Virus record (IMG/VR): IMGVR_UViG_2645727991_000006 | Source: a virus | Taxonomy: Duplodnaviria > Heunggongvirae > Uroviricota > Caudoviricetes | DNA length: 5,177 nucleotides | Strand: one strand, 5' to 3' | Shown: positions 943 to 5,177 of the stretch, in pieces | How the letters are laid out: each line of letters opens with the position of its first letter | Numbering within the stretch: position 1 is the stretch's first letter | The notes under the pieces: generated by a model | What the model saw: only the letters and a program-made list of their open reading frames with translations | What the model was told of the DNA's origin: nothing | Database searches by the model: none | Made by a program: the position numbers and the translations under genes

Positions 943-1686
943 ATGACAGAGACAGAATCAGCGATTCTGGCGCACGCCCGGCGATGTGCGCCAGCGGAGT
1001 CGTGCGGCTTCGTGGTGAGAACGCCGGAGGGGGAAAGCTATTTTCCCTGCGTGAATATTTCCGGTGAGCCGGAGGATTATTTCCGGATGGCTCCGGAGGA
1101 CTGGCTGCAGGCAGAAATGCAGGGTGAGATTGTGGCGCTGGTCCACAGCCACCCCAGTGGTCTGCCCTGGCTGAGTGAGGCTGACCGGCGGCTGCAGGTG
1201 CAGAGTGATTTGCCGTGGTGGCTGGTCTGCCGGGGGGCGATTCACAAGTTCCGCTGTGTGCCGCATCTTACCGGGCGGCGCTTTGAGCACGGGGTGACGG
1301 ACTGTTACACGCTGTTCCGGGACGCTTACCATCTGGCGGGGATTGAGATGCCGGATTTTCATCGTGAGGATGACTGGTGGCGTCACGGTCAGAATCTCTA
1401 TCTGGATAATCTGGAGGCCACAGGGCTGTATCAGGTGCCGTTGTCAGCGGCGCAGCCGGGCGATGTGCTGCTGTGCTGTTTTGGTTCATCGGTGCCGAAT
1501 CATGCCGCCATTTACTGTGGTGACGGCGAGCTGTTGCACCATATTCCTGAACAACTGAGCAAACGAGAGAGGTATACCGACAAATGGCAGCGACGCACAC
1601 ACTCCCTCTGGCGTCACCGGGCATGGCACGCATCTGCCTTTACGGGGATTTACAACGATTTGGCCGCCGCATCGACCTTCGTGTGA
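943..1686 (+). CDS. K: Tail assembly protein K (gpK), JAMM/MPN+ plus NlpC/P60-like domains; drawn from the first in-frame ATG (248 aa); canonical annotation starts at ATG 1087 (199 aa)
   Basis: Frame 1 is open from 901 (TTG) to TGA 1684-1686. First ATG at 943, 4 nt after the L stop; second ATG at 1087, preceded by GGAGGA at 1071-1076 (10 nt spacing). HSHPSGLPWLSEAD (1144-1185) fits the JAMM pattern HxHx7Sx2D; the candidate upstream Glu (AESCGFVV, GAG 997-999) lies before the canonical start. NlpC/P60-like Cys in GVTDCYTLF (TGT 1303-1305), with downstream His residues (NHAAIY, LLHH). The 3' end matches the canonical 199-aa K exactly. Confidence 0.85.
   Translation: MTETESAILAHARRCAPAESCGFVVRTPEGESYFPCVNISGEPEDYFRMAPEDWLQAEMQGEIVALVHSHPSGLPWLSEADRRLQVQSDLPWWLVCRGAIHKFRCVPHLTGRRFEHGVTDCYTLFRDAYHLAGIEMPDFHREDDWWRHGQNLYLDNLEATGLYQVPLSAAQPGDVLLCCFGSSVPNHAAIYCGDGELLHHIPEQLSKRERYTDKWQRRTHSLWRHRAWHASAFTGIYNDLAAASTFV
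1071..1076 (+). promoter_or_regulatory. Shine-Dalgarno-like GGAGGA upstream of the internal (canonical) K start ATG 1087
   Basis: GGAGGA sits 10 nt upstream of ATG 1087. It lies inside the open K frame, so it may drive an internal or alternative initiation, or be coincidental. Confidence 0.4.
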
Positions 1687-2324
1687 AAACGGGGGCTGAA
1701 GCCATCCGCGCACTGGCCACACAGCTCCCGGCGTTTCGTCAGAAACTGAGCGACGGCTGGTATCAGGTACGGATTGCCGGGCGGGACGTCAGCACGTCCG
1801 GGTTAACGGCGCAGTTACATGAGACTCTGCCTGATGGCGCTGTGATTCATATTGTTCCCAGAGTCGCCGGGGCCAAGTCAGGTGGCGTATTCCAGATTGT
1901 CCTGGGAGCAGCCGCCATTGCCGGATCATTCTTTACTGCCGGAGCCACCCTTGCAGCGTGGGGGGCAGCCATTGGGGCCGGTGGTATGACCGGCATCCTG
2001 TTTTCTCTCGGTGCCAGTATGGTGCTCGGTGGTGTGGCCCAGATGCTGGCACCGAAAGCCAGAACTCCCCGTACACAGACAACGGATAACGGCAAACAAA
2101 ACACCTATTTCTCCTCACTGGATAACATGGTTGCCCAGGGCAATGTTCTGCCCGTTCTGTACGGTGAAATGCGCGTGGGATCACGTGTGGTTTCTCAGGA
2201 GATCAGCACGGCAGACGAAGGGGACGGTGGTCAGGTTGTGGTGATTTGGTCGCTGATGCAAAATGTTTTATGTGAAACCGCCTGCGGGCGGTTTTGTCAT
2301 TTATGGAGCGTGAGGAATGGGTAA
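1584..2324 (+). CDS. I: Tail tip assembly protein I (gpI); reads as 246 aa here, 23 codons longer than the canonical 223 aa (see findings)
   Basis: Track ORF 1584..2324. ATG at 1584 is exactly 497 nt after ATG 1087, as in lambda. The first 221 residues match my recollection of lambda gpI ([74 protein letters not shown]...GGQVVVI). Overlaps the K 3' end by 103 nt in a different frame. The 3' end diverges after the T-run at 2245-2247. Confidence 0.85.
2275..2300 (+). other. GC-rich hairpin (8-bp stem AAACCGCC/GGCGGTTT, 4-nt loop TGCG) followed by a U-rich tract (TTTTGTCATTT); terminator-like or mRNA-structure element at the I-J junction
   Basis: Read directly: 2275-2282 AAACCGCC, loop 2283-2286 TGCG, 2287-2294 GGCGGTTT (perfect complement), then TGTCATTT. 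It lies about 20 nt before the J ribosome-binding site. In canonical lambda this would be intergenic (I-J); here it falls inside the extended I reading frame. Confidence 0.35.
2305..2308 (+). promoter_or_regulatory. Shine-Dalgarno (GGAG) for J
   Basis: GGAG sits 8 nt upstream of ATG 2317. Confidence 0.55.
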
Positions 2325-5177
2325 AGGAAGCAGTAAGGGGCATACCCCGCGCGAAGCGAAGGACAACCTGAAGTCCACGCAGTTGCTGAGTGTGATCGAT
2401 GCCATCAGCGAAGGGCCGGTTGAAGGTCCGGTGGATGGATTAAAAAGCGTGCTGCTGAACAGTACGCCGGTGCTGGACAGTGAGGGGAATACCAACATCT
2501 CCGGCGTCACGGTGGTGTTCCGGGCAGGTGAGCAGGAGCAGACACCGCCGGAGGGGTTTGAATCCTCCGGCTCCGAGACGGTGCTGGGTACGGAAGTGAA
2601 ATATGACACGCCGATAACCCGGACCATCACGTCGGCAAACATTGACCGTCTGCGCCTGACCTTCGGTGTGCAGGCACTGGTGGAAACCACCTCAAAGGGG
2701 GACCGGAATCCGTCGGAAGTCCGCCTGCTGGTTCAGATCCAGCGTAATGGTGGCTGGGTGACGGAAAAAGACATCACCATTAAGGGCAAAACCACCTCGC
2801 AGTATCTGGCCTCGGTGGTGGTGGGTAACCTGCCGCCGCGCCCGTTCAATATACGGATGCGCAGGATGACGCCGGACAGCACCACAGACCAGCTGCAGAA
2901 CAAAACGCTCTGGTCGTCATACACCGAAATCATCGATGTGAAACAGGGCTACCCGAACACGGCACTGGTCGGCGTACAGGTGGATTCGGAGCAGTTCGGC
3001 AGCCAGCAGGTGAGCCGTAATTATCATCTGCGCGGACGCATTCTGCAGGTGCCGTCGAATTACGACCCGGAAAAACGCACATACAGCGGTATCTGGGACG
3101 GAACGCTTAAACCGGCATACAGCAACAACATGGCCTGGTGTCTGTGGGATATGCTGACCCATCCGCGTTATGGCATGGGGAAACGTCTTGGTGCAGCGGA
3201 TGTGGATAAATGGGCGCTGTATGTCATCGGCCAGTACTGCGACCAGTCGGTGCCGGACGGCTCTGGTGGCACGGAGCCGCGCATCACCTGTAACGCTTAC
3301 CTGACCACACAGCGCAAGGCGTGGGATGTGCTCAGTGATTTCTGCTCGGCGATGCGCTGTATGCCGGTATGGAACGGGCAGACGCTGACGTTCGTGCAGG
3401 ACCGACAGTCAGATAAGGTGTGGACCTATAACCGCAGTAATGTGGTGATGCCGGATGATGGCGCGCCGTTCCGCTACAGCTTCAGCGCCCTGAAGGACCG
3501 CCATAATGCCGTTGAGGTGAACTGGACTGACCCGAACAACGGCTGGGAGACGGCGACAGAGCTTGTGGAAGATACGCAGGCCATTGCCCGTTACGGTCGT
3601 AACGTCACGAAGATGGATGCCTTTGGCTGTACCAGCCGGGGGCAGGCACACCGCGCCGGGCTGTGGCTGATTAAAACAGAACTGCTGGAAACGCAGACCG
3701 TGGACTTCAGCGTGGGCGCAGAAGGGCTTCGCCATGTGCCGGGCGATGTTATTGAAATCTGCGATGATGACTATGCCGGTATCAGCATCGGTGGTCGCGT
3801 GCTGGCGGTGAACAGCCAGACCCGGACGCTGACGCTCGACCGTGAAATCACGCTGCCATCCTCCGGTACCACGCTGATAAGCCTGGTTGACGGAAGTGGC
3901 AATCCGGTCAGCGTGGAGGTCCAGTCCGTCACCGACGGCGTGAAGGTGAAAGTGAGCCGTGTTCCTGACGGCGTTGCCGAATACAGCGTGTGGGGGCTGA
4001 AGCTACCGACGCTGCGCCAGCGCCTGTTCCGCTGCGTGAGTATCCGTGAGAATGACGACGGCACGTATGCCATCACCGCTGTGCAGCATGTGCCGGAGAA
4101 AGAGGCCATCGTGGATAACGGGGCGCACTTTGACGGCGACCAGAGCGGCACGGTGAATGGTGTCACGCCGCCAGCAGTGCAGCACCTGACTGCCGAAGTC
4201 ACCGCAGACAGCGGGGAATATCAGGTGCTGGCGCGCTGGGACACGCCGAAGGTGGTGAAGGGGGTGAGCTTTATGCTTCGCCTGACCGTGGCAGCGGACG
4301 ACGGCAGTGAGCGGCTGGTCAGCACGGCCCGGACGACAGAAACCACATACCGCTTCACGCAGCTGGCGCCGGGGAACTACAGGCTGACAGTCCGGGCGGT
4401 AAATGCGTGGGGGCAGCAGGGCGATCCGGCGTCGGTATCGTTCCGGATTGCCGCACCGGCAGCGCCGTCACAGATTGAGCTGACACCGGGCTATTTTCAG
4501 ATAACAGCGGTCCCGCGTCTTGCGGTGTATGACCCGACGGTACAGTTTGAGTTCTGGTTCTCGGAAACGCGGATTACCGATATCAGGCAGGTTGAAACCA
4601 CAGCCCGCTACCTTGGCACGGGGCTGTACTGGATAGCCGCCAGTATCAATATCAAACCGGGCCATGATTATTACTTTTATATCCGCAGTGTGAACACCGT
4701 TGGCAAATCGGCATTTGTGGAGGCTGTTGGCCAGCCGAGTGATGATGCATCCGGCTATCTGGATTTTTTCAAAGGAGAGATAGGGAAAACCCATCTGGCT
4801 CAGGAGTTGTGGACTCAGATTGATAACGGTCAGCTTGCGCCTGACCTGGCGGAAATCAGAACGTCCATCACGGATGTCAGTAATGAAATCACGCAGACCG
4901 TCAATAAGAAACTGGAAGACCAGAGTGCAGCGATCCAGCAGATACAGAAGGTTCAGGTTGATACAAATAATAATCTGAACAGCATGTGGGCTGTGAAGCT
5001 GCAACAGATGAAGGACGGACGCCTTTATATTGCGGGTATCGGTGCCGGTATTGAGAATACGCCAGCAGGAATGCAGAGTCAGGTGCTGCTGGCGGCAGAC
5101 AGGATTGCGATGATTAATCCTGCGAATGGCAACACAAAGCCGATGTTTGTTGGTCAGGGCGATCAGATATTCATGAA
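2317..5177 (+). CDS. J: Tail tip/central fibre protein J (gpJ, host specificity protein), N-terminal ~953 codons; the 3' end and receptor-binding C-terminus lie beyond the window
   Basis: ATG 2317-2319 preceded by GGAG at 2305-2308 (8 nt spacing). Frame 1 translation [41 protein letters not shown]... Spot-checks at 2341, 3781 and 5101 stay in frame (…[26 protein letters not shown] at the window end). No + strand ORF appears in the track after 2324 because this frame has no stop before the window ends. Matches lambda gpJ (1132 aa) as I recall it. Confidence 0.94.

Follow-up and report, generated by a model that had tools for sequence, protein, structure and literature searches.

The window analysed here, that is, the whole stretch of 5,177 bp, is the entire draft contig JHSU01000082.1 of assembly GCA_001266125.1, as established by an exact look-up of the neighbouring K protein, and, as it is the whole deposited contig, the extra T described below is present in the deposited record. 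The contig carries tail genes on the + strand in the order M-L-K-I-J, which is shared with lambda and with all the relatives compared; it starts within M and ends within J. The 3' part of gene M (positions 1–240; distal tail protein), truncated by the contig end, has an open frame closed by a stop codon at 238–240, matches PF05939 and is syntenic with lambda M. Gene L (240–938; PF05100) is an intact ORF for a tail tip protein of 232 aa, the length of lambda L. Gene K (943–1686) is also intact and has the long form of 247 aa with JAB and NlpC/P60 peptidase domains (PF14464 and PF00877); the same gene, of 744 nt, is annotated in relatives. Gene I lies between K and J as an ORF of 246 codons (1584–2324), in which codons 1–221 correspond to canonical gpI and codons 222–246 to a frameshifted read-through. 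Finally, the first 2.86 kb of gene J (2317–5177; central tail fibre) gives 953 codons without any stop up to the contig end and is homologous to lambda J as far as position 4813.

The initial annotation had taken this DNA as lambda, with every other gene agreeing to the base with the canonical lambda lengths. This does not hold. The window showed 95.8% identity with lambda, the match ended after position 4813, and 1-nt indels were found at 936, in the L-K spacer, and at 1077, inside K. These differences and the identity of the contig ruled out lambda itself, and JHSU01000082.1 is DNA of a lambdoid E. coli prophage distinct from phage lambda. The suggestion of an engineered change or a laboratory construct is likewise without support, because the contig is a draft-genome piece of a natural lambdoid prophage. 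The highest identity over the whole window was 96.4% among phage records and 96.7% among complete E. coli genomes, and the protein-cluster neighbours of its proteins belonged to Escherichia or Shigella throughout. The prophage module is multi-copy: 4,645 of the 5,426 complete E. coli genomes contained it, and the median copy number per genome was 3. At fine scale the contig is a mosaic, its best-matching relative switching at intervals of a few hundred bases, and among the 500-nt tiles the worst, located in J, reached only 98.8–99.0% identity across the 5,426 complete genomes. Such fine-scale mosaicism is normal in lambdoid tail genes. The substitutions private to the contig were those at 839, 1038, 1156, 3063, 3168, 4005 and 4815.

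The I frame runs on the + strand from the ATG at 1584 to the TAA at 2322–2324 (246 aa). Near its end it reads GTG (2241–2243) ATT TGG TCG CTG ATG, with a TTT at 2245–2247, and the overlap with the start of J (ATG at 2317–2319) is 8 nt, so that both the length and the overlap previously given for this frame were reproduced from the sequence. The 25-residue tail also coincided exactly with the peptide reported before. In lambda, by comparison, gene I is annotated at 14773..15444 and J begins 60 nt further on. This annotation agrees with the 223 aa previously given for canonical gpI, and the lambda reference has TT at the site in question. When one T was deleted from the window, the frame ended as VVVIGR-TGA after 223 codons and the lambda haplotype was recovered exactly. 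The canonical TGA is still present in the window, at 2254–2256, where it aligns with the lambda I stop codon (15442–15444), and is out of frame. The window thus lacks the canonical C-terminus ending in VVVIGR with a stop about 60 nt before J; its stop lies 68 nt downstream of that of lambda I, with the 8-nt overlap with J in place of the 60-nt gap.

A six-way DNA alignment placed a single-T gap at 2245–2247 in lambda, in two E. coli prophages and in two phages. Position 2245 was the sole unbalanced coding indel common to all five comparisons with relatives; the remaining indels were the A at 936 in the L-K spacer, paired alignment shifts in J, and the one at 1077 in K, which concerned lambda only. 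The alignment, the indel list and the scans of sequence collections all gave TTT in the window and TT in all relatives. From the sequence, a single T inserted with respect to the canonical gene I shifts the frame beyond the normal stop, and this reading is supported by every one of these comparisons.

The product of the gene scored 99.6 bits at residues 14–97 on the PF06805 (Lambda_tail_I) profile, whose curated cut-off is 23.8, and 220 of its first 221 residues, up to I221, were identical to those of lambda gpI (NP_040599.1, 223 aa, PF06805; PDB 8IYK chain I, 223 aa), the two proteins being divergent beyond that point. In addition, residues 133–221 aligned without gaps and with one substitution to the gpI chains of 9E7M and 8IYK. 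This region corresponds to the hydrophobic helices and the C-terminal plug/beta-strand region that the tail-tip structures of lambda resolve in gpI; structures containing lambda gpI are PDB 8IYK, 8IYL, 8K35, 8XCG and 9E7M. By profile, near-identity and synteny (the M-L-K-I-J order), the gene is a member of the gpI family, in a damaged or misread copy, whose product has the final GR of lambda gpI replaced by 25 residues derived from the spacer.

The start of gene I is annotated in different ways. Besides the ATG at 1584 used in lambda (223 aa), public records use Met14, at 1623 (210 aa), and the GTG at 1683 (190 aa), and the source's own gene call for the window is 1683..2324. The call of 190 aa is the usual choice of PGAP and its GTG overlaps the stop codon of K. 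As the Lambda_tail_I domain spans residues 14–97, this call would lose about 20 residues of the domain.

The presence of the extra T in other sequences was studied with a 54-mer centred on the insertion, searched in the 5,426 complete E. coli genomes. None of the 4,642 places found there matched it exactly, the best reaching 53 of 54 positions, and the TTT allele was also absent from the 73 phage records. Exact scans with a TTT 26-mer and with a more permissive TTT 20-mer, AGGTTGTGGTGATTTGGTCG, gave no match in 185,579 GTDB species genomes, in IMG/VR or in the JGI metagenomes, whereas the TT control pattern matched at least 120 IMG/VR contigs. At protein level, the source's own product, with 213 aa counted from GTG 1683, is recorded for a single contig of a single sample, and this contig is the window itself. 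A direct look-up of the 246-aa product gave no record, since the source had placed the start of the gene at that GTG. The protein cluster of the 213-aa product has 5,268 members, and all the members listed end in VVVIGR. A search with the last 50 residues recovered only canonical C-termini besides two proteins (P0004 and P0018), the power of this search being limited by the fact that frameshifted copies sit in 90% clusters with canonical representatives. The first of them (P0004) has a separate frameshift further upstream and drifts into the same spacer frame, while the end of the second (P0018), an ENA protein, is a translated Nextera adapter (LSLIHI). The extended peptide, whose conservation among close relatives had been proposed, besides a TTT run in the lambda reference, as an observation that would speak against an insertion, was conserved in none of the relatives. 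All these results evidenced that the extra T is private to a single record.

The closest relative over the I region was E. coli CFSAN018748 (CP028192), from which the window differs by 3 substitutions and this T over 817 nt. The segment that joins the 3' end of I to the 5' end of J had 110 nt in 108 of the 110 loci compared and 111 nt in the window; once one T is subtracted, the window segment is the commonest haplotype among those 110 loci, which is also that of lambda. Other frameshifts in I were detected at different positions in 2 of the 64 other loci covering the gene (about 3%), both from IMG/VR, which cut the I ORF at 38 codons (L051) and at 134 codons (L102), respectively. Single-base lesions in I are commonplace in public data.

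We consider with high confidence that the best explanation of the 246-codon frame is a private and very recent insertion, TT to TTT, at 2245–2247 of an otherwise canonical gene I. The chances that it is a real and very recent mutation or an error of the consensus are roughly balanced. There is about an even chance that the T is in the DNA, where a single prophage copy would carry a variant or an incipient pseudogene, and a chance slightly below even that it exists only in the deposited consensus as a sequencing or assembly error. In favour of an error, the T is a singleton, absent from every independent sequence of the locus, and the contig is a short piece (5.2 kb) of a module that is multi-copy, a kind of repeat in which consensus problems are likelier. 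However, 2245 is the contig's only unbalanced coding indel. The initial annotation had described a homopolymer insertion: the insertion of a single T stood in every comparison, but to speak of a homopolymer goes too far, as the run is only TT in the relatives, and the 57 runs of at least 4 nt in the contig are all intact. The classic signature of a homopolymer error at 2245–2247 was consequently weak. The 7 private substitutions found in 5,177 bp also lie inside the range of 0–7 obtained when finished genomes and phages were treated alike. As to a possible consensus blended from several prophage copies, the observations pointed in both directions: the best relative changes along the window and the worst 500-nt tiles stay at 98.8–99.0%, but private alleles are no commoner than in finished genomes, and mosaicism of this kind is normal in lambdoid tail genes. 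On the other side, a real mutation has to be reconciled with the integrity of the neighbouring genes, no decay having been observed in M (partial), L, K or J (partial); as these neighbours are intact, the mutation, if real, would be very recent.

As read from the sequence, the inserted T shifts the frame after Ile221, so that the terminal Gly-Arg-TGA is lost and the TGA at 2254–2256 bypassed. Translation then carries on across the 60-nt I-J spacer, first through a hairpin that resembles a terminator and then over the ribosome-binding site of J, and ends at the TAA of 2322–2324, 5 nt beyond the start of J. A ribosome in the extended frame would unwind the hairpin and cross the J ribosome-binding site, and the expression of J could change as a result.

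The spacer (2257–2316) had 60 nt in 108 of the 110 loci, and the tail is its translation, hairpin and J ribosome-binding site included. The hairpin, a GC-rich structure followed by a T-run (2273–2297, + strand), was predicted by RNA folding, with the stem AAACCGCC / GGCGGTTT and the loop TGCG. The hairpin escaped a consensus terminator scan, but in the curated record of phage 21 (OL657228) the same 25 nt are annotated as terminator, and the GGAG equivalent to that at 2305–2308 of the window, which lies within the extended I frame, is annotated as the J ribosome-binding site. The stem was conserved among relatives, with changes falling in the loop (G/C at 2284) or preserving a G-U pair (C to T at 2278). 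No Rfam family was matched within the window and, in Pfam, the tail gave no match, the product matching at residues 14–97 only. When the variation of the spacer among relatives was read in the frame of the tail, 13 changes were non-synonymous and 2 synonymous; most of them affected the second position of a codon, and in one haplotype the frame would be closed by a stop. Relatives thus show no coding constraint there. On this sequence evidence the 25-residue tail is translated non-coding DNA and not an evolved extension.

In the lambda tail-tip structures, gpI is modelled up to residue 222 or 223 (PMC10721106, PMC12617516) and forms a trimeric plug in the lumen of the tip, bound to gpJ through three beta-sheet augmentations (PMC10721106, PMC12617516, PMC11101478). 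In the virion the final residues of gpI lie ordered against gpJ, so that an altered C-terminus would probably impair the assembly of the tail tip. If the T is real, the replacement of Gly-Arg by 25 residues would thus probably be more harmful than helpful to assembly. We judge it very unlikely that the T is real and that the prophage still builds working tails. If this were nevertheless the case, gpI would tolerate a 25-residue, Cys-containing tail in place of its ordered C-terminal Gly-Arg, and a translational coupling of I and J, in which the frame crosses the terminator hairpin and closes just behind the J start codon, would be compatible with a correct dosage of gpJ.

A related possibility is that the window contains an evolved functional variant, in which a longer gpI with a Cys-containing C-terminal tail is functional within the tip and the translation of I and J is coupled by their overlap. 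The new frame is open for exactly 25 codons, and an end so close to the J ATG could permit termination-reinitiation; moreover, hardly any relative would have this frame closed if it carried the T. However, the T was absent from every other sequence in the collections searched, the changes in the spacer look non-coding in the tail frame, and the features that the spacer does conserve are an RNA hairpin and a ribosome-binding site. The ordered position of the gpI C-terminus against gpJ makes harm the likelier outcome, as stated above. Nothing suggests selection for the insertion, and we regard a functional variant as very unlikely.

Still less credible is a programmed recoding, by which a +1 shift at AUU-UGG would yield canonical gpI, with its GR end, together with the long form. 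Programmed frameshifting is used in the lambda tail operon at G/GT, and both products can be read from the window sequence. However, the TTT site occurs in a single record and in none of the relatives, which encode the canonical protein in one frame. In addition, AUU UGG offers no known +1 shift-prone motif, stimulatory upstream Shine-Dalgarno or slow codon, and direct reading of positions 2235–2260 revealed neither a heptamer of the X XXY YYZ type nor a prfB-like CUU UGA with an upstream Shine-Dalgarno.

The last alternative takes the sequence of the window as normal and attributes a deletion to the lambda reference. It has next to no probability: lambda does differ by 1 nt from its relatives in K (window 1077), but TT was present at the I site in each of the 110 loci, in the 73 phage records and at all 4,642 E. 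coli places, and the VVVIGR end in all the cluster members listed.

A private single-base insertion in gene I has close parallels among known systems. Laboratory lambda (lambda PaPa) has lost its side tail fibres through a one-base frameshift in stf, as cited in PMC10721106. Like the lesion of the window, that of stf is a single-base frameshift in a lambdoid tail gene, and it shows that such lesions can be real and that their persistence is possible. The lesion of the window differs in that the protein encoded by the affected gene plugs the tail tip as a structural component (PMC11101478). Furthermore, the stf lesion is verified, fixed in its lineage and located in a dispensable gene, whereas that of the window comes from one draft contig and is unverified.

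The likeness to the G and GT genes, which lambda expresses by a programmed -1 ribosomal frameshift in its tail operon, is that, in the same operon, two frames meet close to the 3' end of a tail gene. G/GT has, however, a slippery heptamer and a downstream frame that are both conserved among relatives, while the site of the window has neither motif nor conservation and, unlike in G/GT, the relatives of the window have no need of a second frame. Frameshifted prophage genes and consensus indels of draft genomes are labelled by NCBI PGAP as 'frameshifted' pseudogenes. The gene of the window is of the same kind as these, namely a conserved gene that is otherwise intact and has a private, single-base frameshift, its sole peculiarity being that the new frame is open through the whole spacer. 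The insertion is an ordinary private lesion or a sequencing error, and no novel type of gene is involved. Frameshifts by a single base are familiar events in the tail genes of lambdoid phages; the observation was correct and its biology is ordinary.

The case matters above all for the keeping of records. Pending confirmation at read level, gene I of this contig is best annotated as frameshifted, and the 'tail assembly protein' of 246 aa (or 213 aa) predicted from it is to be regarded as gpI with a frameshift rather than as a novel variant, and is unsuitable as a seed for protein families or for the prediction of structures. Should the T prove real, the contig would offer a small natural experiment on the tolerance of the gpI C-terminus and on the coupling of I and J expression.

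Two differences were also observed around K. In the L-K spacer, at 936, there is a length polymorphism of one base, an extra A being present in lambda and in about two thirds of the loci and absent from the window, and the comparison of K-gene lengths across loci is confounded by this polymorphic A. In the window and in most relatives, K is a single ORF of 247 aa beginning 5 nt after L. The lambda locus used for comparison (from NC_001416), at its positions 1130–1290, is one base short with respect to window 943–1100, at 1077, and, as a result of this missing base, the first ~45 codons of K (MTQTESAILAH...) are out of frame with the annotated gene. The lambda reference itself thus has a one-base frame difference in a tail gene adjacent to I, and its annotated K, of 199 aa, begins at an internal ATG.
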